NCBI GenBank assembly: GCA_038087875.1 | Contig: CM075993.1 | Location: 4,218,001-4,282,000, forward strand | DNA from: Malacoraja senta | Taxonomy: Eukaryota | Reading direction: 5' to 3' | DNA: 64,000 nt | Shown: in pieces, positions 18,401 through 53,200 of the stretch | Layout of the letters: each line of letters begins with the position of its first letter | How positions within the stretch are numbered: the first letter of the stretch is position 1 | The notes under the pieces: generated by a model | Told to the model about the DNA's origin: nothing | The model's input: the letters and a program-made list of their open reading frames with translations, nothing else | Databases searched by the model: none | Program-made: the position numbers and the translations under genes

Positions 18401-21400
18401 CGATGCCAAGACAAACTCTTATCTGCCTGCATCTAATCCCTATCCTCCATTCCTCATGCATTAACGTTCCCACCCAAAAACCTGACTCAAATTCCCAAAA
18501 TGGATCAAGTTACACTGTAGAGTATTCACTTAAAATTAAGTGGTTATTTTTGATTGCAACCAATTATTCAAATCCTACAAGTTATCTCTTCTTCATTATT
18601 CCATTACTATTAACGGGGTACTAGTTGTCTATTAACGGGGTACTAATAGGGGACGATCAGCCATGATCATATTGAAAGGCGGTGCTGGCTCGAAGGGCTG
18701 AATGGCCTACTCCTGCACCTATTTTCTATTGTCTACTTCTCGCATGTATTTCCAACTATTTCACATTTTCATTTTTGTAATTATTGTCACATATTTTCTG
18801 TTTGCATGAAGCATGCTGAGACAGTTCAGATTACATTGAAGTCTTCAACTGTAACGTTTTATAAGCAATAAACGTTAATGCCTGAAGAGCTACCATTATT
18901 GTGATGCAGGACATTTGGCTGCCAATTCGCAAAATGCCTCCATTTATACCTTGAGCCTCTTCGGCAAGGCCAGCGGCATAATCAAGGACGTGTCGCACCT
19001 TGGCCACTCCCTCTTCTCCCCTCTCCCATTAGGCAAAAGATATAGAAGTGTGAAAACGCACACCTCCAGATTCAGGGACAGTTTCTTCCCAGCTGTTATC
19101 AGGCAACTGAATCATCCTACCACAACCCGAGAGCAGTGCTGAACAACTCGCAACCTCATCGGTATCCTTGATCAAACCTTGCTGGCTTAAGCTTGCATTA
19201 AACGTTATCCCTTTTCATGCATCTATACACTGTAATGGCTTGTTTGTAATCATGTATTGTCTTTCTGCTGACTGGATAGCACGCAACAAAAGCTTTTCAC
19301 TGTACCTCGGTACAAGAAATATTACTAAACAGACCAGATTAACAGGTTTTAAAGATGTTGCTTCAGGCAAACATTTCTAGCATATGTGGAAACATTTATG
19401 CAGCGGGCAGAGCTGCTGCCTCTCTGCGCCAGAGACCTAGCCCTTGGGTGCTGGCTGTGTGGAGTTTGCACCTTCGCCCTGTAACCACGTGGGTTTCCTC
19501 CGGATGTTCTCGTTTCCTCCCACATCCCCAAAACATGCTGGTTTAAGTTAATTGGCCTCAGCAAATTGCGCCTAATGTATAGGGAGTGGATGCGAAAGTT
19601 GAATTACATCGTACTAGTGTGAACAAGTTCGCCAAAAGACATGTTTTCTGAACTAAGCTAAAGAATAGAAACAAGGAACTGCAGATGCTGGTTTACAAAA
19701 ATAAGACGCAAAATGCTGGAGTAGCTCGGCTGTCTAGGCAGCATCTCTGGAGAACATGGATAGACAACGTTTTGTGTCAGGACTCTTCTTCAGACTGATT
19801 GTGTACTCTCGGAGGTGGTGAAGGGAGGAGCAGGAAGTGATACAAGGTCAAGGTGCGAGTTAAATAATTGAAGAGTTGCATATTGCAAACTAAACTAAAA
19901 TTGTGCCATGGGACCTTTTACATTCATTTAAAAAATAGTTGAAACCTGTTTAATATCTCATCCAGAAGGCAACGCCAATTCCTTCTCCACCACAAATGTC
20001 TACCTGGATTTAAATGCATCAAACTTTAGAGAGCACTATTGGTTTATCTAAAATAGTAACAAAATCCTGGAGTAACTCAACAGGACAGGAAGCATCTCTG
20101 GAGAAAAGGAATTGTCACTAGGAGAAAGTGACGTTTCTGGACGAGACCCTTCTTCAGATTGAGAGTTAAGGGAGACGAGAGATATGGAAGGGTACGGTGT
20201 GAAAATGACAGATCAAAGCAGAAGTTAATCCAGGAGTGGGTCGCAGCTCCCCAACTGATGGGACCTGTTCTCGCTCTCTTTGAAGGAGGCGCCGCCAGCC
20301 CCAGCGAATGCGGAGCCGACCTGTAATATGAGAGGGAGCATTTTCCCAGTCAGACTTTGTCGACAGTTGGGGTGGGGAGGAAAAAAGTGGGAGAGAGAGA
20401 GAGACCGCACAGTCGGCACAGTTTAATAACGACCCATTAAAATCCACCTTCGGCCACTCGGCAACCTGGGCCGATCTGATCTGACAGCCCTCTCGCTAGC
20501 TCGCCGCGTGCCCGATCCTAACGCAGACCTCCACAAAACCTTTGGGCTTCGGGTAACACGTGCACATAGAGCCTCTGCTAACAAGGGCTGGCGAATTGTG
20601 CTGGTCAACGTGCACTGGCCGAGATGGCTGGGGGAAACGCACCGCAACCACCGCAAACTTGGATCAGCACAGACCCTCCACTCAATCTATCCAATACTAA
20701 AGGGCAGGCATTTCACCGTTAAATGTCTTATACCGGATTGGCGGCTCCTTCACAGGGCCAACCCTGCACTCAGTTTTCCTCGGAGATTAATCTTTGCCTT
20801 AACGGTACATTCACACCGCCTGTAGGTAAAGCATCAGCCCACACCACACTGATACAGTCGCTGCTTGCCTCAGATTAAATATATTTTTACACATAAATTA
20901 TGAATAAAGATAAGTAAATGTTTCAAGCACAAGTAATATTTTCTTATTCCAGTAGCAAACACATTAGGGATAAAATGAAAATAATAAATTCTTTAACTGT
21001 TTGAATATCTCATAATTGCCGATTAATGAACTCAACTAGAACTGGGACACACAGTAGTGTGTGAACAGCAGAACAAGAAAGGAAGCTATTGAGTTGACAG
21101 AATTCTAGATTAATTCCTTAGTAGAATAATTAACAATTTATATACAGTTTATGCAGTGCTGTGTTGGCTTTTTTTAAAATCCCAAATGACCTATCTGAAT
21201 CAGAATGCTTTATTGTCATTGCATGTGTCACATGCAACGAGATTACTGTGTCTCTCCATTTAAAAGAACTTCAAACACTCACATACTCAAACTTTTTATA
21301 CTCCCCCCCCTCCCCAAACCCCATGGATTCACATTTACATAAATTAACACTGTCTCCCACCCCCCCTCCTTCCCCATAACCCGCTCCCGAGACAGAGTTC

Positions 21401-23602
21401 AGTTCCAAGATTGCTGATGGGTAAAAGCTGTTCTTGAGTCTGGCAGTACGTGACTTTAGCGACCTGTACCGGTTTCCTGAGGGCAGCAGTGTGAAAATGG
21501 AGATGACAAAGTGGGGTGGGGGGGGGGGGGAGGGGGATGGGGAGTATGAATAAAAGCTGGGGGGAGGAATGGAGAGTATGAATGAAAGCTGAGGGAGGGG
21601 TAGGTCAATGTCAGGAAGAGGACAAGGTGAGTGGGGGGAGGAAGAGGACAAGGTGGGTGGGGGAGGGAGAGGACAAGGTGGGTGGGGGAGGAAGAGGACA
21701 AGGTGGGTGGTGGAGAGGACAAGGTGGGTGGGAGAGGACAAGGGGGTGGGGAGCAAGACAGGGTGGGGGGAGAGCAAGACAGGGTGGGGGGGAGAGGACA
21801 AGGTGGGTGGGGGGAGAGGACAAGGTGGGTGGGGGGGAGAGGACAAGGTGGGTGGGGGGAGAGGACAAGGTGGTGGGGGGAGGAGAGGACAGGGTGGGGG
21901 GGGGGAGAGGACAGGGTGGGGGGGGAGGGGAGGACAGGGTGGGGGGGGAGGGAGGACAGGGTGGGGGGGGAGAGGACAAGGTGGGTGGGGGGAGAGGTCA
22001 AAGTGGGTGGGGGGGAGGAGAGGACAGGGTGGGGGGGGAGAGGACAAGGTGGGGGGGGGAGAGGACAAGGTGGGTGGGGGGTGGAGAGGTCAAAGTGGGT
22101 GGGGGAGGAGAGGACTGGGTGGGGGGAGGAGAGGACAGGGTGGGGGGGGGAGAGGACAAGGTGGGTGGGGGGAGAGGACAAGTTGGGTGGGGGGGTGGAC
22201 AATGTGGATGGGGGGTGGAGAGGTCAAAGTGGGTGGGGGGGAGAGGGGAGGACAGGGTGGGGGGGAGAAGATGGGGGGGAGAGGACAATGTGGGTGGGGG
22301 GGGAGAGGACAATGTGGGTGGGGGGTGAGAGGTCAAAGTGGGGGGGGGGAGAGGAGAGGACAGGGTGGGGGTGGAGAGGTCAAAGTGGGTGGGGAGAGGA
22401 GAGGGTGGGGTGGGGTGGGAGAGGACAATGTGGATGGGGGTGGAGAGGTCAAGTGGGTGGGGTGGAGAGGTCAAAGTGGGTGGGGGGGAAGAGGAGAGGA
22501 CAGGGTGGGGGGGGAAGATGGGGGGGGGAGAGGACAATGTGGGTGGGGGTGGAGAGGTCAAAGTGGGTGGGGGTGGAGAGGTCAAAGTGGGTGGGGGGGG
22601 AGAGGAGAGGACAGGGTGGGGGTGGAGGACAATGTGGGTGGGGGTGGAGAGGTCAAAGTGGGTGGGGGGGAGAGGAGAGGACAAGGTGGGGGGAGGACAA
22701 TGTGGGTGGGGGGTGGAGAGGTCAAAGTGGGTGGGGGGGAGAGGAGAGGACAGGGTGGGGGGGAGGAGAGGACAGGGTGGGGGGGAGAAGATGGGGGGGG
22801 GAGGACAATGTGGGTGGGGGGTGGAGAGGTCAAGTGGGTGGGGGTGGAGAGGTCAAAGTGGGTGGGGAGAGGAGAGGACAGGGTGGGGGGGAGAGGAGAG
22901 GACAGGGTGGGGGGGAGAGGAGAGGACAGGGTGGGGGGTGGAGAGGTCAATGTGGGTGGGGGGGTGGAGAGGAGAGGACAGGGTGGGGGGGTGGAGAGGA
23001 CAATGTGGGTGGGGGGGAGGACAGGGTGGGGGGGGGGAGGACAGGGTGGGGGGGGGGAGAGGACAATGTGGGTGGGGGTGGAGAGGTCAAAGTGGGTGGG
23101 ATGGAGAGGAGAGGACAGGGGGGGGGGTGGAGAGGACAATGTGGGTTGGGGTGGAGAGGTCAAAGTGGGTGGGGATGGAGAGGAGAGGACAGGGTGGGGG
23201 GGGTGGAGAGGACAATGTGGGTGGGGGTGGAGAGGTCAAAGTGGGTGGGGATGGAGAGGAGAGGACAGGGTGGGGGGGGTGGAGAGGACAATGTGGGTGG
23301 GGGTGGAGAGGAGAGGACAATGTGGGTGGGGGTTGGAGAGGTCAAAGTGGGTGGGGATGGAGAGGAGAGGACAGGGTGGGGGGGGGGGGTGGAGAGGACA
23401 ATGTGGGTTGGGGGGGGGCAGAACTCGTCCCCTCAAGGCATCGGATGAGAGGCGCGGGCACACATTGCCGCCGAAGGAACACGCCGCAGCTCCCTGCCCG
23501 ATGAGACACTTCATCCCCATACACAGTGGGTGAGAGCCGCCGTAACTAGTGACCTGACCGCTCTCTCTTCACGCAACCCTCACCTTTCACCGCCGCCGCC
23601 AT
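3215..23602 (-). CDS. MPI: Mannose-6-phosphate isomerase (type I PMI), 8 coding exons, about 421 aa after correcting two +1 indels in exon 8
   Basis: Spliced translation [21 protein letters not shown]...LWMGAHPKG...LSIQAHPNK...[11 protein letters not shown]...[30 protein letters not shown]...LLFRACCMQ* matches vertebrate MPI, including the Zn-ligand motifs. Exon phases are compatible at every junction. Confidence 0.96.
4135..4420 (-). mobile_element. CR1 LINE 3' fragment
   Basis: [28 protein letters not shown]. Confidence 0.8.
4957..5165 (-). CDS. MPI: MPI exon 7
   Basis: ccag|AT TGC ATA GAA...ATA GAG|gtatga; 209 nt; [23 protein letters not shown]...[12 protein letters not shown]. Confidence 0.95.
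5340..5785 (-). mobile_element. CR1 LINE 3' fragment
   Basis: Degenerate [11 protein letters not shown]...NFF region with CR1 tail. Confidence 0.75.
6489..6664. mobile_element. PIF/Harbinger-type MITE
   Basis: TIRs of about 30 bp (AAGGCTAGTCCCACTTGTCCGTCATTTGCG / CGCAAATGACGGCCAAGTGGGACTGGCCCT); TTA TSD. Confidence 0.82.
7274..7447 (-). CDS. MPI: MPI exon 6
   Basis: gtag|GT GCT GCA...TAT GGA G|gtgaga; 174 nt; [17 protein letters not shown]...[10 protein letters not shown]. Confidence 0.94.
8831..9010 (-). CDS. MPI: MPI exon 5
   Basis: gcag|AT GTC CCG GAG...GAA GAA G|gtttgt; 180 nt; [13 protein letters not shown]...[12 protein letters not shown]. Confidence 0.94.
9185..9475 (+). mobile_element. 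HE1/V-SINE-like SINE
   Basis: GGCGGCACAGTGGCACAGCGG head, GGTTTCCTCCCACAC core, GGGCCGAAGGGCCTGTTTCC tail. Confidence 0.82.
10265..10406 (-). CDS. MPI: MPI exon 4
   Basis: gcag|GAA CTA GCT...TTG AAA A|gtaaga; 142 nt; [47 protein letters not shown]. Confidence 0.95.
10809..10836 (+). ncRNA. Hammerhead-like core in a short Penelope-derived repeat
   Basis: CTGAAGA-A-GGGT-CTCG-ACCC-GAAA-CGTC. Confidence 0.55.
11415..11712 (+). mobile_element. HE1/V-SINE-like SINE
   Basis: Same family, B box GGTTCGATCC. Confidence 0.8.
11881..12081 (-). CDS. MPI: MPI exon 3 (ends at a GC donor)
   Basis: ttag|CTA TGG ATG GGA...CCG AAC AAG|gcaagc; 201 nt; LWMGAHPKG...LSIQAHPNK. Confidence 0.93.
12462..12965 (+). 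mobile_element. CR1 LINE 3' fragment
   Basis: Degenerate CR1 RT C-terminal coding region and GGGCCGAAGGGCC tail. Confidence 0.8.
13303..13616. mobile_element. PIF/Harbinger-type MITE with a truncated right terminus
   Basis: TAA then TGGCCCTGTCCCAC; GTACGAGTTCATTCCAAGAGCTCTCCCGAGTTT is inverted at about 13584-13616. Confidence 0.75.
13991..14118 (-). CDS. MPI: MPI exon 2
   Basis: ctag|TG TTT CCG...TAT GCT GAG|gtattt; 128 nt; [17 protein letters not shown]...KPYAE. Confidence 0.95.
15280..15712 (+). mobile_element. CR1 LINE 3' fragment
   Basis: Same CR1 C-terminal region and 3'UTR, inverted relative to 16616-17051. Confidence 0.85.
16186..16317. repeat. Near-perfect 65-bp-arm palindrome of a Penelope-derived short repeat
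   Basis: 16186-16250 is the reverse complement of 16253-16317 with one mismatch; 2-nt spacer. Confidence 0.9.
16616..17051 (-). mobile_element. CR1 LINE 3' fragment
   Basis: [19 protein letters not shown]...RTRGHSL...[14 protein letters not shown]; short tandem-repeat tail. Confidence 0.88.
21510..23420 (+). repeat. G-rich minisatellite in MPI intron 1
   Basis: 20-25-bp units GAGAGGACAAGGTGGGTGGGG / GAGAGGTCAAAGTGGGTGGGG / GAGAGGACAGGGTGGGG / GAGGACAATGTGGGTGGGG. Confidence 0.95.
23584..23602 (-). CDS. MPI: MPI coding exon 1 (MAAAVK+G)
   Basis: ATGGCGGCGGCGGTGAAAG|gtgagg. The phase-1 G completes GTG (Val) with exon 2. Lies in a CpG-rich patch next to a ZNF143-type motif. Confidence 0.85.
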
Positions 23603-29200: not shown

Positions 29201-32200
29201 TTCTTATCAAGTCCACATCACAAGATTAGAAATTGTTCAGCTAGAGCTGAACACACTACTCGGCATCTGCATACAGTTGCGTCTTGCGCTTCTTGTGCGT
29301 GGTGGTGGAAAGATTGGTGGAAACAGGGCAACGATGTGAACGCTCTTTCCTTGACCCCAACTGTTAAGTTATAGCAGAAGAAGTAGGGCAGCAAAGGAGG
29401 AACGTGGTCAGGTGAACAATTAGTAAAAGCTCATTGCATCTGGAGTAGATCTATGTTCTTCGATTGGATTCCCCAGTGATATCATTGTCTGGGATTCTTT
29501 TTCCATTATTTCACTTCTCTGAATTTAGCAGCTAGGCTGCAAAAATGCTTTTCTTTTGGATTTAGTTGCATATTTTCCAAAGTTTAGGTGCTTCCAGAGA
29601 GGGTATACTTTTGCATTTAAAAACATGCGCATGTATTTGGCACATTGGATTAAAATTCTAGCAATGTACATACAGTGTATTCAATTACACACTTTTAAAT
29701 ATTTATTTAACGGCTGTAAAGTTTTCTCGCTTAAGATGGACTAAGGAGAAGACTTAAATTTCAGTTTCAACAAGCAGAAGAGTAAGAAAAGATTCTCCAC
29801 AGCTGAGGTCGTGTGACTCCCTATCCCTTAAAATGGCCTGAAAGGCTTCAAAGTTGCTATGTCAACACTGAAAAAGGGTAAAATTGGACAGTCTACCCAA
29901 CTGACTTTTTTGTTGCACTCTTTTCTCCTCTCACCATACAGCCTTGCAAATTCTTTCCTTTCAGATAATTTTCATTTCATTTAAATAAATCAATTCAACC
30001 TTCAAAGTCAATTGGTAAATCTATTTTGTACCCTTTACATATTTCCTGCAGTGTTGTGCCCAGAATTGGACACAGTGCTCCAGTTCTGCCACAGCAATGA
30101 CTATAAAGGTTTCTTCCTTGCTCTCGTACTCCATGCCTCTGCTTATAATCAATTTCACAATCTGCTGCACCCCTTTCATCAAAATATACACAGATGCATG
30201 CTGATTTCTATTCTGGTATCTGCTGTTATAAGTCATATTTAGATTATATTGTCCCTTAGTTTTTCTATCAAGATGCAGTGATTCATATTTCTCATTACAT
30301 AGTGATTAATTTCACCATGCTACCGGCATCTTCATTGTTCATGACATCTCAGCCGCAGTACTGAAGAGTGGTCCAGCTGTTGCGATGCCGTTCCAGTACA
30401 ATTTTAAAAAACTGGTATTTATCATTGATGTGAAAAATTGCTCAATTGTTCTGTTAACAAAAAACTGGGTAACTTGAATACCTCGCCTCAACCTTGGATC
30501 AAAGCATTGAATTTTAGAGATGAGAGAGCAAGTCTTCCTTTCACACAAAGGCAATACTTGATTGTGGCATCAAGGTTTCTTGATAAAACAGATATGAAAG
30601 GGAAAATGTAAGCTTTATCTGACTGAATACAGTAGGACTAAACCATCGTGGGCTGATAACGTATGCCACAAATTCCAGACAGACTCCTAATAACCTATCC
30701 TTAATGAACACCACTGAATTATCAGTAATTATCATGGAAGATCTCAAAGGAAACTAAACTGGACTAACCACTGTCTTTGCCGATTAATGCATGTGTAGTA
30801 TAACTACAAGAGCAAGTCAGGTTGAGCATCCTGTGTTAAGGGGTGATAGACTCCTTACTGACATCCACTACAAACCTACCGACTCCCATGGCTATCTGGA
30901 CTACACTTCTTCCCACCCTGCTTCCTGTAAGGACTCCATCCCCCACTCCCAATTCCTCCGTCTACGCCGCATCTGCTCCCAGGATGAGGCGTTCCACACC
31001 AGGGCATCTGAAATGTCCTCATTCTTCAGGGAACGGGGGTTCCCCTCCACCATAGATGAGGCTCGCACCAGGGTCTCTGCCATACCCCGCAACACTGCTC
31101 TCTCTCCCCATCCCCCCACTCACAACAAGGGCAGAGTCCCCCTAGTCCTCACCTTTCACCCCACCAGCCGTCACATACAACAAGTGATCCTCCGTCAGTT
31201 TCGCCACCTCCAACGTGACCCCACCACTCGCCACATCTTCCCATCTCCCCCCATGTCTGCCTTCCGCAAAGACCGCTCCCTCCGTAATTCCCTTGTCAAT
31301 TCTTCCCTTCCCTCCCCTCCCATACCACCCCCTCCCCTGGTACTTTCCCTTGCAACCGCAAGAGATGCAACACTTGTTCCTTCACCTCCCCCCTCTACTC
31401 CATTCAAGGACCCAAGCAGTCGTTCCAGGTGCGACAGAGGTTCACCTGCATCTCCTCCAACCTCATCTATTGCATCCGCTGCTCTAGATGCCAGCTGATC
31501 TACATCGGTGAGACCAAGCGGAGGCTTGGCGATCGTTTCGCCGAACACCTCCGGTCGGTCCGCAATAACCAACCTGACCTCCCGGTGGCTCAGCACTTCA
31601 ACTCCCCCTCCCATTCCGTATCTGAACTCTCTGTCCTGGGTCTCCTCCATGGCCACAGCGAGCAACACCGTAAATTGGAGGAAATGCACCTCATATTCCG
31701 CTTGGGCAGTCTACATCCTGGGGGCTTGAACATTGAATTCTCCCAATTCTGCTAGCCCTTGCTGTCCCCTCCCCTTCATCAGCCATCCGGTTGTCTCCTC
31801 CCCCAGCCCTCGGGCTCCTCCTCTGCCTTTTTCCTTTTTTTCCTTTCTTCTCCCCACCCCCTATCAGTCTGAAGAAGGGTTTTGGCCCAAAACGTTACCT
31901 ATTTCCTTCGCTCCATAGATGCTGCTGCACCCGCTGAGTTTCTCCAGCATTTTTGTGTACCTGTGTTAAGGAGCTTGCTTCCTGGTACCACAAAGCCTTT
32001 ATACCACCTGTGTGGCATGATGTAATGCTGTTTGCTTGCCTTGAAGATAGAACTCCAACACCATCCAGGGGAAAGTTGAATTGGCAATCCATTCAATCCC
32101 CCAAATGTGTATTCCTTTAGTGTTGCACAATGTCAGCTGTGGGTGCCATCTATAAAATGTATTCCTAAGCTTTTAAGACAATGCCTTGTAATATCTTGAA

Positions 32201-38200: not shown

Positions 38201-41200
38201 AAATGTAATTTATTAACTCTTCTCTTCAGGGTGATGGCCACCTGTGACTTATTATTTTAATGCAGCAACCATGCATCTCTGTTGCCATTCAGATTTAGTG
38301 ATGCCAGAGGATATGTGTCCACGCACACTATATATAAACTATTCTTGCAGTTATGGTGGTACAGGTAATGCTACCCCAGATCTGAAGGAGAGCTTCTGGC
38401 TCCTAAATTGTCAATCTTTGCCTTCACTATGAGAATTGGTTCAAGTAAGCATGGTTGTTTCCTCCTTCTATTAACAAACTACCAATATTGAAGCTGGCAC
38501 GTAAAAAAATAAAATAGCTTGTCTAAGAGGCCAGAAGGGATCTAGCAAATGAGGATATGTTTAATCACTGAGAGAATCTTTCATAAATTGCTGGGATAAA
38601 GATATGGACTAAAATATGCAGCTTGGCATTCTACTTTGTATAATTATTTCCCATTATTATTGTTCTGTGGAATAGGCCCTACAATTTTGTTTTATAAGTG
38701 ATAGAGAGGAGGAAGAGATTGCCAAATAAATGATTGAAACAATATAATGAGCACTTGAACAAAACTCATCTAATCCATCTATCCACATCAGTTTTGTTTT
38801 ATAGTTTATAGTTATCTGTGAATGAATCTAGATTTTATTCTGTTTTGGGGAAGTAAGAAAATTGAACCTTGTTTTAATTGGCGGTGTTTATCCGAAAGTA
38901 TTTAAACTCACAGCCTCTTTTTGCCTTCTCAGGATCCTTCGGTAACTCAGCTGGCTAATGCCAACCAGCAAGGTATTGATGATTTTAATCCATTCACTGA
39001 GAACAGCAGGCTGGTAAGTTTCAACATTGTTGATATCTTGTCCTCCTTTTAGTTCCACGGAGCAAACTTTAACAGTGGTCCTTCTTCCTAGCTCAGTTGT
39101 AGAAGACTTCTATTGGCAGTTTTCTTCAGATTTGCAGGAGCAAAGTGATTGTTCAGACATGTTCTGTGCACAAATGTTTTTGGCTACAACACTTGAATTC
39201 TCAGCTTTAGCTGATGAGGGGTATCCAGCAGTGTTTCCCCATCAGGTAGATGTATTTTTTTAGTAACAATTAATTGCTGGGAAGGAGGCAGGTGGGAGTG
39301 GCATTGAACAGGGTTGTAATTTGTTGGTTAAGCTTGCCGCACACCACAAGCTACTGGAAGTCCCTCAGTTAAGCTTGGTATGCAAATTGTCAATCATTGA
39401 TTAGGCCATCTTATAAAACTCATGAGAAGGGACCCAAACATGTTGGATCCCACCCACGTTCTCCCTGTGCATGTGTGGAATTTCAATGGGCTTGTTGGCC
39501 CTGGAAGTAAGACCACCACATTTTTGACAGGAAACCATGCAGCCTCTGTGTCAAAGGTTCTGATGTTAATACCTATTTTATTTATTTTGTCTACATTTAC
39601 ATTATTAAAAGTCTGTAACTTTGAAAGTGGGTTTATCCGTAGTTTCACTTTCACTGGCGTTCCACACCAGGGCATCCGAAATGTCCTCATTCTTCAGGGA
39701 ACGGGGCTTCCCCTCCTCCACCATAGATGAGGCTCGCACCAGGGTCTCTGCCATACCCCGCAACACTGCTCTCTCTCCCTATCCCCCCACTCACAACATG
39801 GGCAGAGTCCCCTTAGTCCTCACCTTTCACCCCACCAGCCGTCACATACAACAAGTGATCCTCCGTCAGTTTCGCCACCTCCATCCAACGTGATCCCACC
39901 ACTCGCCACATCTTCCCATCTCCCCCCATGTCTGCCTTCCGCAAAGACCGCTCCCTCCGTAACTCCCTTGTCAATTCTTCCCTTCCCTCCCGTACCACCC
40001 CCTTCCCGGGTACTTTCCCTTGCAACCGCAAGAGATGGAACACTTGTCCCTTCACCTCCCCCCTCGACTCCATTCAAGGACCTAAGCAGTCGTTCCAGGT
40101 GCGACAGAGGTCCACCTGCATCTCCTCCAACCTCATCTATTGCATCCGCTGCTCTAGATGTCAGCTGATCTACGGTGAGACCAAGCGGAGGCTTGGCGAT
40201 CGTTTCGCCGAACACCTCCGCTCGGTCCGCATTAACCAATCTGACCTCCCGGTGGCTCAGCACTTCAACTCCCCCTCCCATTCCGTATCTAACCTCTCTG
40301 TCCTGGGTCTCCTCCATGGCCACAGCGAGCAACACCGGAAATTGGAGGAAATGCACCTCATATTCCGCTTGGGCAGTCTACATCCTGGGGGCATGAACAT
40401 TGAATTCTCCCAACTCTGCTAGCCCTTGCTGTCCCCTCCCCTTCATCAGCCCTCTGGTTGTCTCTTCCCAGCCCTCGGGCTCCTCCTCCATCTTTTTTCC
40501 TTTCTTCTCCCCACCCCCTATCAGTCTGAAGAAGGGTTTCGGCCCGAAACGTTGCCTATTTCCTTCGCTCCATAGATGCTGCGGCACCCACTGAGTTTCT
40601 CCAGCATTTTTGTGTACCTCCGTTTCACTTTAAATGTTGGGTGTGTTGTTTTGTCCAGTGTGGTAGTTAAATTGATTTCAAATAGTACAGGTCACGCAAA
40701 CATGACTAAACTGGATTTTTAAAATAATTTGGGGAAATAATGGGTTCCAGCATTGACATAAATAACTACCAGATGTTCCTTAGATAGTGATAATTGGGGT
40801 GATTCCCACGCTTTGTTAGATCTGTGTAATTTGTGTACTTTTATCAGTTGGCATAATGCATTCAGTTTTTCTCCTACCTGATGTCTCGCTCCCAACCTAT
40901 TGGGAAATGTTAGCCACTCACCGGGAGTACAGTCCGCATCACCAACCTTGGCTATATACACTTCACTGAGTGTGGGGCTGAAAACATGGCTAAGTTGCAT
41001 GTAGTTCCAACATAGTTTATTCAGCATGAGAATATTCTCTTCTTGTTCCTCATCCAGGTCATGAAGCTCATTGTTGTACCCTATTAACCTTCTGGTTTAA
41101 AATTAGTTAACTTGATCAGGAGATTGGCCCCAATGTGCAAGGCACATGACTTGCACGTCTGAAGAAGGGTTTCGACCCGAAACATTGCCTATTTCCTTCG

Positions 41201-44200
41201 CTCCATAGATGCTGCCTCATCCGCTGAGATTCTCCAGCATTTTTGTCTACCTTCGATTTTCCAGCATCTGCATTTCCTTCTTAAACATGACTTGTTATTT
41301 TATGTTGACCTAATCCAGGGGGTGGGAGATTGCAACCTTCACGTGGTCGGCCCTGTTTCGACTAATGCAATCAACCCGGCGTGCACAATCAAACAAGATC
41401 AAATAGAACAAGTTGTCCTACAACTTTAGGCTGTGCGCGCCATACGCAAGAAGAAGAACCTAATCCAGGATTATATTTGTGATTGTTATTTACTGTATAA
41501 AGTGAGAAGGTTTTGTTAAATACAGTATTTCTCAAAGCTATTTTTTTGCTGAAGAGATAGATTTAACCCAATAAGCACTGAACAGAATAAATTGTTTAGT
41601 GCTTATGGTATCTATTGCATTCTTTGTTATATTATTGTTTTTAATTGAATTGTTTTGTGTAGGACATCCAAATAGGCAAAATAAAACGTCATTATTTATA
41701 ATAGACCAGTTAGAACAATTCTACATATAGATTTACAACAATTGTGCTTTAATAATACTGCAGCGATTTATGGACCATGAATAAGAGAATGTATTTGTCA
41801 CTTTGGTTGCGCAATGAATTCTGAATTCTAACGTTCAGTGCTATATAAAGTTGGATAAGGCACAGGGGTTAATTCTTACATTTTACTGGTTCAGATGGGC
41901 ATAACATGTCATGGACAATATCCGAATGAAAGCAATACATTCACATGCTGTCTTGGCCTAAATTGCTGCTCCTTCCCCCTCCCCTCCTCAACAAAGCGAC
42001 AGTTGTTTGTTCAGCTTGCAGCTCGCCATTGCTGATATAAGATGGCTACTGTGTCTGCTCATAAACACTGGGTGCACTTTAAAAACAACTTGTGGCAACA
42101 TGAGGCATGGTATACATGAGTTTTAGTTTTACTGTATATTTTCTACAATCACAAATGACCTTTATTGCAGATTTGATTCCTGATGTGTGGAAAGGGTCTG
42201 ATGATATTCAATTCAAAGTTAGCACCTTGGTATGTTCCTAATTTTATTTTTACTCTTTAGACTCCTGCTGCAACAGATACCAAAGTTCCAAATGCACCGA
42301 AGGTTGCTCCTTCTCAGCCAGCAATCTTGCAGCCTACAGTGGAACCCAGTCCTCAGGTATGCTAAATAATGGAATGTTATGGAATTCTGTTGTGCAGTTA
42401 ACAGGCACAATAAATGTAAAATGTTAATAGAAGCTGACTTTATTCAGTTAGTGGTATTTACTAACTTAATTCACGTAATTCAAACTGTGAATTGACAGAT
42501 TGAACCAACCCATAAGAACAATCTACACCACAGATGAATGCACATTCTTTCACATAGATGGGGATGAATGATCCTGCCTAATCCATAGCATGGGGTCCCC
42601 ATTCATTACCCTCCTGTGTGACATCAATTAACTCTGACTGAATATTTTCCACAGTAGATTTAAAAAACCCATGACAGTATTTGAGAGGGAGTGGATCTGA
42701 ATCCGAGCCAACTGTTTTTCATTGCTGGGTAAGCTGTAGCTCTGTGTGGGGTACTCTCATCTCTTAAGTCTGATTCAAGTTTTGGTTCAAGTTCTATTCT
42801 GCAGAATAACCACACACATCTGGACTGCTCGCACAGTATTAAGGGAGTGTTACACTTCCAGAGCATTTTTTAGATGAGACACTGAAAGGAGGGATTGTCT
42901 GCTGTCTCAAGTGGAGCAAAACATCCTGTGACACTATGTCAGGGAAGAGTGAGGGAGATTTACTTGATGTTCAGACCAATATTTATTCCTTATTTAACAC
43001 AGAAGAACAAATGTGTCATGCCATTGTTATTGACAGTATTTTGTGCACTAATTTGCAACCATTCATATTATTTTATAATAGTAGCAACCCATCAAAAATT
43101 GCTTGATTGACGACAGACTCTTTCATGACTTAAAAGGAATGTGGAAAAAAAGAGTAGTTTGAATAAATAATAACACTTGGGCTGCACGGTGGTGCAGCGG
43201 TAGAGTTGCTGCCTTGCAGCGCTCGCGGCACCGGAGACCCGGTTCGATCCCCACTATGGGCGCTGTCTATACGGAGTTTGTACGTTCTCTCCATGACCTG
43301 CGTGGGTTTTCGAGATCTTTATTTCCTCCCACACTCCAAATACATACAGGTTTGCTTGGTATAAGTTAAATTGTCCCTAGTGTGTGTAGGATAGTGTTAA
43401 TGTGTGGGGACTGCTGGTCGGTGCAGACTCGGTGGGCCGAAGGGCCTGTTTCCGCGCTGTATCTCTGAACTAAACTAAAGTAAACTTGGGAATTATTTGC
43501 CTGTAAATGAAGGAAATTAAATATTGGGTGTTTACAACGTGCAACAAAGATTCTAAAAATGCAGCATAATACAAAGAACAGGGTGAAGCATCATTGAGAA
43601 TCGAACTGCAGATGCTGGAAATCTGAAATAAAACCAAAAGTGCTGGAAACATTCAGCAAGTCCGGCAGCATTTGTGGATGAAAAACAGTTAACATTTCAG
43701 GTTGTTGTGTTATTGTCCCCTGGTTCAAGCTAGCTTGGTCTTACAACTCTTAAAGCATCCCTTTTAATTTGTTGACATCTTATAATTTTGTGTATTAATA
43801 AACAACTCCCTTATTACCATTTATTCTTGTGTCCCATTTCTTGATCGTATTCCTGCAGTAGAGATGTATCATTTCTGAATTTGACTTCATAGACAATTAA
43901 CCAACACCAGGAATGAGAAAATGGGGAACTATAGTTAACCTTGCTTCATCAGTCGGAAATTGCTACAACCTATTATTAGGAAAGTGGTGGCATGTCATTT
44001 AGAAAAAATTAAAAGGAGTGGTGAGAGTCAACATGGTTTCATGAAAGGGAAATGATGGTTGACAAATTTGTTGGGAGCCTTTGTGGTTGCAGCTAGTAGA
44101 TACGGATATGATATTTTGGAGTTTCGGCATACTTAATCAGATAATGGAATGGTTACTGCACAGAAGGAAGTCATTCGGCTAATAATATCCATCACAGGTC

Positions 44201-50200: not shown

Positions 50201-53200
50201 GCTTGCAAAAGTATTCATACCCCTTGAACTTTCCCACATTTTGTCACGTTACAACCACAAACGTAAATGTATTTTATTGGGATTTTATGTGATAGACCAA
50301 CACAAAGTGGCGCATAATTGTGGTGGAAGGAAAATGATACATGGTTTTCAAATTTTTTTACAGATAAAAAACTGAAAAGTGTGGCGTGCAAAAGTATTAA
50401 GCCCCCTTTACTCTGATACCGCTAAATAAAATCCAGTGCAACCAATTGCCTTCAGAAGTCACCTAATTAGTAAATAAAGTCCACTTGTGTGTAATCTAAT
50501 CTCAGTATAAATACAGCTGTTCTGTGAAGGCCTCAGAGGTTTGTTAGAGAACATTAGTGAACAAACAGCATCATGAAGCCCAAGGAACACACCAGACAGA
50601 TCAGGGATAAAGTTGTGGAGAAGTTTAAAGCAGGGTAAGGTTATAAACAAATATCCCAAGCTTTGAACATCTCACGGAGCACTGTTCAATCCATCATCCG
50701 AAAATGGAAAGAGTATGGCACAACTGCAAACCTACCAAGACATGGCCGTCCACCTAAACTGACAGGCCGGGCAAGGAGAGCATTGATCAGAGAAGCAGCC
50801 AAGAGGCCCATGGTAACTCTGGAGGAGCTGCAGAGATCCACAGCTCAGGTGGGAGAATCTGTCCACAGGACAACTATTAGTCGTGCACTCCACAAATCGG
50901 GCCTTTATGGAAGAGTGGCAAGAAGAAAGCCATTGTTGAAAAAAAGCTATAAGAAGTCCTGTTTGCAGTTTGCCACAAGCCATGTGGGGGACACAGCAAA
51001 CATGTGGAGGAAGGTGCTCTGGTCAGATGAGACCAAAATTGAAGTTTTTGGCCTAAATGCAAAACGCTATGTGTGGCGGAAACCTAACACTGCACATCAC
51101 CCTGAACACACCATCCTCACTGTGAAACATGGTGGCGGCAGCATCATGCTGTGGGGATGCTTTTCTTCAGCAGGGACAAGGAAGCTGGTCAGAGTTGATC
51201 GGAAGATGGATGGAGCCAAATACAGGGCAATCTTGGAAGAAAACCTGTTAGAGTCTGCAAAAGACTTGAGACTGGGGCGGAGGTTCACCTTCCAGCAGGA
51301 CAACGACCCTAAACATACAGCCAGATCTACAAAGGAATGGTTTAGATCAAAGCATATTCAGGTGTTAGAATGGCCCAGTCAAAGTCCAGACCTAAATCCA
51401 ATTGAGAATCTCTGGCAAGACTTGAAAATTGCTGTTCACAGACGTTCTCCATCCAATCTGACTGAGCTTGAGGTATTTTGCAAAGAAGAATGGGCAAAAA
51501 TTTCAGTCTCTAGATGTGCAAAGCTGGTAGAGACATACCCCAAAAGACTTGCAGCTGTAATTGCAGCGAAAGGTGGTTCTACAAAGTATTGACTCAGGGG
51601 GGCTGAATACTTTTGCACGCGACACTTTTCAGTTTTTTATTTGTAAAAAAATTTGAAAACCATGTATCATTTTCCTTCCACTTCACAATCACATAATATC
51701 CCAATAAAATACATTTACGTTTGTGGTTGTAACGTGACAAAATGTGGAAAAGTTCAAGGGGTATGAAAACTTTTGCAAGCCAGTGTATATCTGCTTTCAA
51801 AGCAATCGTCTGGAAATAAATGAGCTGAATTATATATTTCACAGTTGGTTGTTTTTAGAATGTCAGCAGCCAAGTTTCTTGAAGTGATGGCCTGAACAAA
51901 TGTGATTGTGTGGACATTAAAGCTTCACCTGGTGAAAGGTCATCAACCTAGAATATCAACCGTGTATTCTCTCCACAGACAATGCCCGGCCTATTGAGAT
52001 TTTCCAGCATTTATTGTTTTTAGTTTAGTTTATTGTCACGTATACAGAGGTAAAGTGGAAAGTTTTTATGTTGCGTGTTATTCAGTCAGCGAAAAGACTA
52101 TACATGATTAGAATCAAGCCGTCTACAGTTACAGTATAAAGCGAATAACGTTTGGTGCAAGATAAAGTCCTGAAAAGTCCGATTAAAGATTTATTACAGA
52201 TTTTCAGCATCTGCAATGTTTTGCTTTCTGATTGAAACTTGGCCTTTCGTTCTTCCAACAGTTCATGCAGTCACACTATTTTTGAACCTCCTTGCTTGCC
52301 TGGCTCAATTTATTCTTGATGCTAAGCATGGAGTCGACTTTGGCTTGGCCATCTTGTGGTTCTTGCTCTTCACTCCTTGTGCCTTCCTGTGTTGGTACAG
52401 GCCAGTTTACAAGGCTTTCAGGTAAGATGTAGTCTAGTTAGGTGTTAAATTGATTCCAACCCCACTAATGCGCAAGCTGCACCTGAAGAAGGGTGCAAAT
52501 TGATCAGCCATGTTGATCTGTTCTTCAGTATCTCCTTGAAGTTCAGAACTCACTGGCATGAAAAGGAATCAAATACCTACTTCCACTTAAAGTAATCCTA
52601 GGAATTTTCTTGGAATGAATCTTTAATGGTCATAACATTTTACATGGAAATTGTAATTAATTAATAATTTATCTTAATTTATTACATTACAATAACACAG
52701 CGCAGGCTGCTTGATCTAATCAGTTTGTCTGTTAGTTATGTCCCATTTGGAATACCAGCTGTCTGTTAGCTAATACCTATCAGTGTTAGTATTTCTTTCA
52801 ACTTTTACCTTTTAAGCATTCTCCTTAAAGCTAAACTCCGTAACCATTCCATGTCATAAGTTGCACATTCTCACTTTTCTAAAGTTCTCAAACTATTTTG
52901 TAAATAACTTTTTGGATTTGTAACTCAATTATTTTGTATTTAGTGGTTCTCACTTAACTGAAAAAAATTATTGTGTCGATCCTATCAACACAATAATTTC
53001 TCTCCAATCCCTCAATGGTTTCAAAGGCTTCCAAGTCATCTCTCTACCTTGCTAATCAAGAAGTCTCCTAACTTGATCATCGTTTCCTATTGGTTCTGAT
53101 ATTTCCCCTTTGCACCCTCATAAATGCTATTATATTTTTATTAATTTATCCAAAGTTTGTCTAATTTTCAGTGGTGAAATAATTTAAACTTATTTCCAAC

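Follow-up and report, generated by a model that had tools for sequence, protein, structure and literature searches.

A high-copy skate retroposon headed by a predicted minimal HDV-like ribozyme and probably derived from a Vingi-type LINE by internal deletion

Non-autonomous retroposons in which a 5′ HDV-like ribozyme is fused to the 3′ end of a LINE are known from the R2 SIDEs and the R2/R1 hybrid SIDEs of Drosophila, which arise by internal deletion and are mobilised in trans, are rare and specific to rDNA, and carry the large R2 ribozyme (PMC3414825; here and throughout, literature statements refer to the available passages of the articles cited). In trypanosomatids, the NARTc, RIME and SIDER elements of the L1Tc/Ingi clade share a 77-nt signature that includes P4 and acts as a promoter (PMC4035085), and the L1Tc/Ingi parent has an RNase H domain (PMC13708176). 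The hedgehog derivatives of Vingi-1_EE are bipartite products of internal deletion in a vertebrate (PMC5786205, PMC4494074), Vingi being a compact LINE with one ORF that encodes APE and RT (PMC13708176). The minimal HDV-like and theta ribozymes of gut phages have no P4, carry the catalytic C as the first residue of J4/2 and occur in phage RNAs, often beside tRNAs (PMC10879173). According to these sources, both ribozyme-headed deleted LINEs, in flies and trypanosomes, and deleted Vingi derivatives are already known.

The element described here, hereafter family A, was encountered in a 64,000-nucleotide stretch of the skate Malacoraja senta (contig CM075993.1, positions 4,218,001 to 4,282,000 of the forward strand), the whole of which is called the window. 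It differs from the R2 SIDEs in being dispersed, in its more than 6,000 copies, in its 54-nt fold without P4 and in having an APE-type parent and a vertebrate host. Unlike their counterparts in the L1Tc/Ingi clade, the skate LINE lacks RNase H and family A lacks P4, and in contrast to the phage ribozymes family A heads a vertebrate retroposon. The literature searched contained no vertebrate Vingi element that combines high copy number with a ribozyme lacking P4; within the article text covered, nothing joined Vingi to a ribozyme or to CPEB3, and a list of ribozyme-bearing clades omits Vingi in the passages seen (PMC5786205). Priority for a ribozyme-headed Vingi element is uncertain, and Repbase, the full hit lists of Rfam or earlier papers may already contain such elements.

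The copy in the window had been described, from the letters alone, as an insert of 139 bp that is flanked by an 11-bp target-site duplication and ends in (AAG)n, and all of its coordinates hold. The insert occupies positions 41319-41457 of the plus strand between the 5′ copy (41308-41318) and the 3′ copy (41458-41468) of the duplication, family duplications being mostly of 11-12 bp. It begins with a predicted minimal HDV-like ribozyme of 54 nt without P4 (41319-41372), which matches the parent LINE's 5′ end in register and has its predicted cleavage point between 41318 and 41319. Alignment with the LINE then delimited the remainder of the LINE 5′ UTR 3′ of the ribozyme (41373-41399), a deletion junction formed by a short linker absent from both LINE ends (41400-41412), and the LINE 3′ end, which comprises the final ORF codons, with the stop codon at 41427-41429, and a short 3′ UTR (41413-41447). 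The (AAG)n tail (41448-41457) is common to the LINE. The linker resembles a repeat of the 8 nt before it, followed by the start of a fold-back arm, in which 41410-41416 pairs with 41420-41426, and a body hairpin can form in this copy between 41378-41387 and 41432-41441.

A descriptor parse recovered the nested double pseudoknot of HDV type that had been proposed for the first 54 nt. P1 pairs 41319-41325, in which G1 is base one of the element, with 41348-41354 and contains a G1·U wobble, one U·G pair and one G-G mismatch (41324/41349). J1/2 has 2 nt, and P2 joins 41328-41334 to 41366-41372 through Watson-Crick pairs at seven of seven positions. P3 (41335-41337 with 41345-41347) closes L3, the two together spanning 41335-41347; the loop, UUCACGU, equals the Rfam CPEB3 consensus loop, as had been claimed. 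P1 is followed by GU, P1.1 would be a single possible pair (C41340 with G41355), a 5-nt linker replaces P4, and J4/2 (CUAA, 41362-41365) opens with the candidate catalytic C41362, which is invariant in 60 of 60 loci and across three families and the role of which is assigned by analogy with HDV-like ribozymes (PMC10879173). The P1 mismatch and the CUAA junction listed in the sequence-only reading are features of this copy, most copies having a fully paired P1 (position 31 is C in 28 of 30) and CGAA. The descriptor, which was composed after the element had been seen and so provides a lenient control, matched once in the 64-kb window, both strands included, and four times in 100 Markov resamples of it. 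Rfam returned no HDV-type family at the locus at E values up to 10, and family A stays below the 35-bit cut-off of RF00622, with no match at the locus or, at E values up to 5, for the LINE 5′ end (L113). By the layout of its modelled pseudoknot, G1 wobble, L3 and catalytic C, the window copy, and family A with it, would be classed as an HDV-like ribozyme, and the family as one of the minimal, P4-less type.

Family A is abundant. The genome contains 6,371 exact matches to the 13-nt P3-L3-P3 core, a reversed control giving 38, and an 18-mer of the family gave 5,563. The mean distance from the majority letters was 4.9%, or 3.7% outside CpG, in 27 unbiased full copies, a set from which L044, L046 and L059 were excluded as LINE-type or interrupted. 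A duplication could be mapped in 63 of 90 loci (27 having none, and three of the 90 being duplicates of one insertion), and it measured 11-12 bp in 42 of the 63. The proposal that the family starts at G1 was borne out by 43 of these 63 copies, in which the duplication adjoins G1 exactly; one extra base was found in 10, one base was lost in 4 and the offset was 2-5 in 6, overlaps with the G run being trimmed toward zero in this count. In contigs from all four public runs inspected, representing four organisms, 5′ loose ends fall mainly at 41319, contigs being unable to show RNA ends. The copies of family A are scattered, each mapped insertion having its own target-site duplication and tail, as in a bipartite non-autonomous LINE derivative. 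Among 30 unbiased copies, G1·U36 occurs in 24, and all pairs together with G1, G37 and C44 are retained in only 17. A pattern scan of metagenomes yielded 11 distinct loci, all of them unrelated by eye beyond the pattern itself. As a separate observation, an 18-nt deletion directly after the ribozyme recurs (for example in L068 and L090), removing one arm of the body hairpin and leaving clean duplications.

The sequence-only reading had predicted a driver of the Vingi, Ingi or RTE type, and a genome search found a LINE of Vingi type that shares both ends of the element. In the short element, the 5′-terminal 81 nt of this 2.8-kb LINE are joined to its 3′-terminal 45 nt, the ORF being absent. Its designation as a SINE-like retroposon is thus right as to its non-autonomous nature and its 5′ end at G1, but not as to an independent SINE, the element being an internally deleted LINE. 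One LINE copy of 2.8 kb (G000:C8:19402165-19404965), located by searching the genome with the 1,019-aa APE+RT protein P0002, carries the same ribozyme and the same 3′ end within one surrounding duplication, shares short-element positions 2-81 and 95-138, and is colinear with P0002 but frameshifted. A 3′-end pattern that bars the upstream letters of the short element gave 219 matches genome-wide; about 80 of the 100 matches listed, counted by eye, run upstream into the end of the ORF, and the eight copies fetched encode the same C-terminus, three extending beyond 560 bp and five being truncated within that length. The closest relatives of this C-terminus are an eel protein (76% identity) and P0002 (61%). 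No RNase H domain was present in P0002 or in the ORF of the sister family B, and the family-A C-terminus aligns to the last residue of P0002. None of 45 candidates scored held an intact family-A ORF, so the driver may be extinct. Compact and with one ORF for APE and RT, the partner LINE fits the Vingi type, by architecture rather than by a tree with named references; identity with an Anolis RT protein was 49% for family B and 28% for the C-terminus of family A.

Several further observations concern this LINE. A search for it that negated positions 64-66 of the short element was set aside, its 157 matches including 30 fetched loci that were deletion, insertion, truncated and inverted variants of the short element; it had missed the LINE because the latter shares the first 81 nt. 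In a second, independent internal-deletion family of the same LINE, which accounts for 10 of the 100 matches listed (for example G000:C1:100932992-100933097), the junction with the same 3′ end lies about 15 nt later in the 5′ UTR. The LINE's closest named relative comes from a deep-sea eel (P0001 against L106), and this level of amino-acid identity (76%) suggests horizontal transfer between the teleost and skate lineages. A third LINE family (L115, G000:C1:165944000-165944450), with 48% identity to P0002, has a partial HDV-type 5′ fold with an L3 of UUCUCGU; in this copy the P1 5′ strand is missing and the descriptor parse fails.

We consider it likely, at a probability of roughly four in five, that the element is an internally deleted derivative of a Vingi-type LINE, with a predicted ribozyme that frees its 5′ end, and that it was mobilised in trans. 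Transcription would proceed by read-through from host promoters or start at one that overlaps the ribozyme; self-cleavage of the P4-less fold 5′ of G1 would free an RNA of about 140 nt with a fixed 5′ end; the APE-RT protein of the LINE would bind in trans to the 3′ UTR and the tail; and insertion would follow by target-primed reverse transcription, the ribozyme benefiting the element rather than the host. These steps are modelled on the R2 SIDEs and on L1Tc/NARTc (PMC3414825, PMC4035085, PMC6765202). Vingi, which is now being built into gene-writing tools (PMC13708176), would then be a further LINE clade whose 5′ end appears to be set by a ribozyme, about 140 nt would suffice for thousands of insertions, and the P4-less HDV-type fold, described from phages and metagenomes, would have its place in a vertebrate genome. 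Three independent 5′-inverted LINE copies have an inverted arm that stops at ribozyme positions 9-11, as would be expected from a template RNA that starts at the ribozyme. Copies with a 5′ inversion include L044, L110/L111, L112 and L078, and the inverted arms of the LINE copies resemble the products of twin priming.

Alternatively, an internal promoter at +1 might fix the 5′ boundary, and the HDV fold would then have another job, such as protection of an uncapped end, binding of the RT or a part in translation start, or be a slow relic. Such a dual use has precedents, since the first 77 nt of L1Tc are both promoter and ribozyme (PMC4035085, PMC3383444) and the HDV-like folds of R2 and L1Tc have been proposed to aid translation and protein binding (PMC6765202); the absence of P4 and a P1.1 of one pair also suit it. 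We nevertheless judge this explanation unlikely, because the catalytic C and the A-A that follows it are invariant across families while the letters of P1-P4 change, because C44T was never amplified although G, U, A and C lineages exist at position 45, and because HDV-like ribozymes without P4 are active, cleaving in vitro (PMC10879173).

In an alignment of family A with the sister families B and D, 97% of 176 cells pair and 11 of 18 pairs change on both sides, against 31-46% pairing in slid registers; with ten hand-chosen rows from related families, in which kinship alone can beat shuffles, we take this covariation as support for the predicted fold and not as a probability. P1.1 covaries as well, L3 UUC going with GU and UCC with GG. 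Family A itself is of too recent an origin for covariation, and two-sided changes are almost lacking within it; pair 5-32 is kept as U·G, U-A or C-G in 30 of 30 copies, and P2 shows 3 changes in 378 cells (27 copies) versus 122 in 2,074 for positions 55-132. Genome-wide, there are 212 copies with the catalytic change C44T per 2,525 intact ones (8.4%), the CpG of L3 decays at about 8.5% a site (985 matches), and the tolerated neighbouring change G45A reaches 412, double the figure for C44T. Since C44T stands at the neutral CpG rate and G45A is doubled, variants of position 45 appear to have been amplified and the catalytic variant not. The essential G25 is no rarer than the dispensable C24 among the 92 one-mismatch rows listed (46 versus 45), which indicates that copies decay neutrally after insertion and shows only that neither variant founded a lineage. 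A depletion of G25A relative to C24T in the public-run contigs was rejected on these same genome counts, and the absence of C44T from those contigs is uninformative because the reference carries U45.

The window copy lies in sense orientation in SCAMP2, as had been stated. Pfam SCAMP matched three of the four exon pieces tested, the best match of the last exon was a SCAMP2-like sequence of the little skate (96%), and exon mapping placed coding exons 2 and 3 at 38933-39013 and 42261-42356, with the second coding intron at 39014-42260 (plus strand) and G1 942 nt upstream of exon 3. The copy might act as the CPEB3 ribozyme does, cutting SCAMP2 pre-mRNA in intron 2 and tuning its splicing or level. 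G1, L3, P2, P3 and the catalytic C are intact in it, and in the mouse the CPEB3 ribozyme affects its own mRNA (PMC10919898). We regard this as quite improbable. The window copy differs from the family majority at four positions, among which G31 breaks a P1 pair and weakens P1 by 3.3 kcal/mol (P1 plus P3, -9.1 kcal/mol against -12.4 kcal/mol in the natural copy L002), and G31 and U45 together create a hairpin of 7 bp that covers P3′, P1′ and the catalytic C and is the minimum-energy fold of the copy. In a folding program that does not treat pseudoknots, L002, which has no P1 mismatch, folded P1 and P3, and with 60 nt of flank neither copy showed P1. G31 was found in 0 of 30 unbiased copies, so that it is a rare change with no sign of a tuned lineage; an earlier view of it as the mark of an amplified subfamily, drawn from 6 of 30 best matches, was abandoned on this count, the six sharing no other rare letter.

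Time and copy number also argue against an effect on the host gene. The CPEB3 cut, with a half-life of 2-3 min, competes with splicing over 9,931 nt, whereas exon 3 of SCAMP2 is only 942 nt away, or about 15 s at the mammalian rate quoted (PMC10919898), and with thousands of dispersed copies a sense intronic insertion is to be expected. The claim that the element would cut SCAMP2 pre-mRNA thus stands for its sense intronic placement and is weak for a CPEB3-like role; the rare P1 mismatch, the competing hairpin and the short distance to exon 3 make an effect doubtful, and a regulatory role of the element in SCAMP2 is possible but unlikely. The copy is probably an ordinary, slowed and decaying one. 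The family also makes it possible to ask whether intronic ribozymes, of which there would be thousands, are eliminated when they lie in sense orientation within genes. In public run X8, a contig of another organism seemingly joins the 3′ end of the element to the same flank (window 41427-41520, three differences), hinting, weakly and at contig level, that the SCAMP2 insertion is older than a species split. A conventional tRNA-derived SINE with a degenerate head, a LINE tail and a coincidental pseudoknot is extremely improbable, since SINE-like length and a TTCGA at 41357-41361, loosely B-box-like with two mismatches to the consensus, are outweighed by a head that aligns base for base with the LINE 5′ end, a shared end that refutes this origin unless the LINE itself acquired a tRNA head, by a fold that covaries across families, and by ARAGORN, which in line with the claimed absence of A and B boxes found no tRNA in five of five loci scanned.

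The CPEB3 ribozyme is a memory-linked ribozyme of mammals. Family A shares with it (RF00622) L3, the G1·U wobble, the GU after P1, a one-pair P1.1 and the C-N-A-A junction, and the window copy also an intronic sense position. It differs in the letters of P1, P2 and P3, in the lack of P4 and of an RF00622 match, and in being a decaying repeat, whereas the CPEB3 ribozyme is single-copy and conserved. When the skate genome was searched with RF00622, 39 of the 51 matches listed lay above the 35-bit cut-off, the best at 64 bits; the same search of 14 control genomes gave no match. The copies above the cut-off include members of four families related to family A, named B, D, E and F. Family B (RF00622 matches at L118:286-369, L120, L122, L128, L130 and L131) is an intact Vingi-type LINE with a 989-aa open frame, the 5′ end of which scores 56-64 bits. 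Tandem repeats of the P2-P3-L3 part were seen at the 5′ end in L120 and in G000:C8:937659-937804.

Family D (L123-L127, L129) is a short family of about 195 nt with a 6-bp P1 and an L3 of UCCACGU followed by GG, which gives a two-pair P1.1. It has roughly 500 pattern matches (533, shared with B), and five of the six copies fetched pass the RF00622 cut-off; its 3′ tail is B-like but has only the last 20 nt in common with B, and no parent LINE was found for it or for E and F. Family E (L132-L135), about 170 nt long and with duplications, is P4-less with a P3 of CPEB3 type and scores 37-44 bits, four of four copies passing. Older ribozyme copies (L137:130-208 on the minus strand, L139:14-83, and also L136 and L138) include a further family, L137 and L139, with about 25 nt in common downstream and a P4 close to the mammalian consensus; copies of this type are the best candidates for an outgroup to CPEB3.

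The passing of the RF00622 cut-off by related retroposons suggests that the CPEB3 ribozyme is a domesticated 5′ end of a Vingi-type LINE. We lean, by a little, towards the reading in which vertebrate Vingi-type LINEs and their derivatives form a reservoir of CPEB3-like ribozymes, mammalian CPEB3 being one domesticated 5′ end and family A the member of the series that has been reduced furthest, lacking P4, and has spread most successfully. Since the letters of P1, P2 and P4 can change freely, their agreement would favour descent over convergence, and the human genome retains a trace of Vingi, according to the literature. The source of the CPEB3 ribozyme is thereby made testable, and if the reservoir reading is true, thousands of self-cleaving RNAs would be spread through host transcripts.

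Other repeats were noted in the window. An abundant repeat lies just upstream of the element at 41157-41283, and two ORF-bearing copies of about 1 kb (30788-31962 and 39656-40619) share its end; we take these to resemble Penelope-like elements with a minimal hammerhead motif, a likeness for which Pfam and Rfam gave no confirming match, and four ORF fragments of the window had no match in Pfam. A 317-aa open frame at 50639-51592 (plus strand), inside a SCAMP2 intron, presumably represents an intact transposase of the Tc1/mariner type. Upstream of SCAMP2, a G-rich, low-complexity tandem repeat extends over about 2.3 kb (21271-23533).
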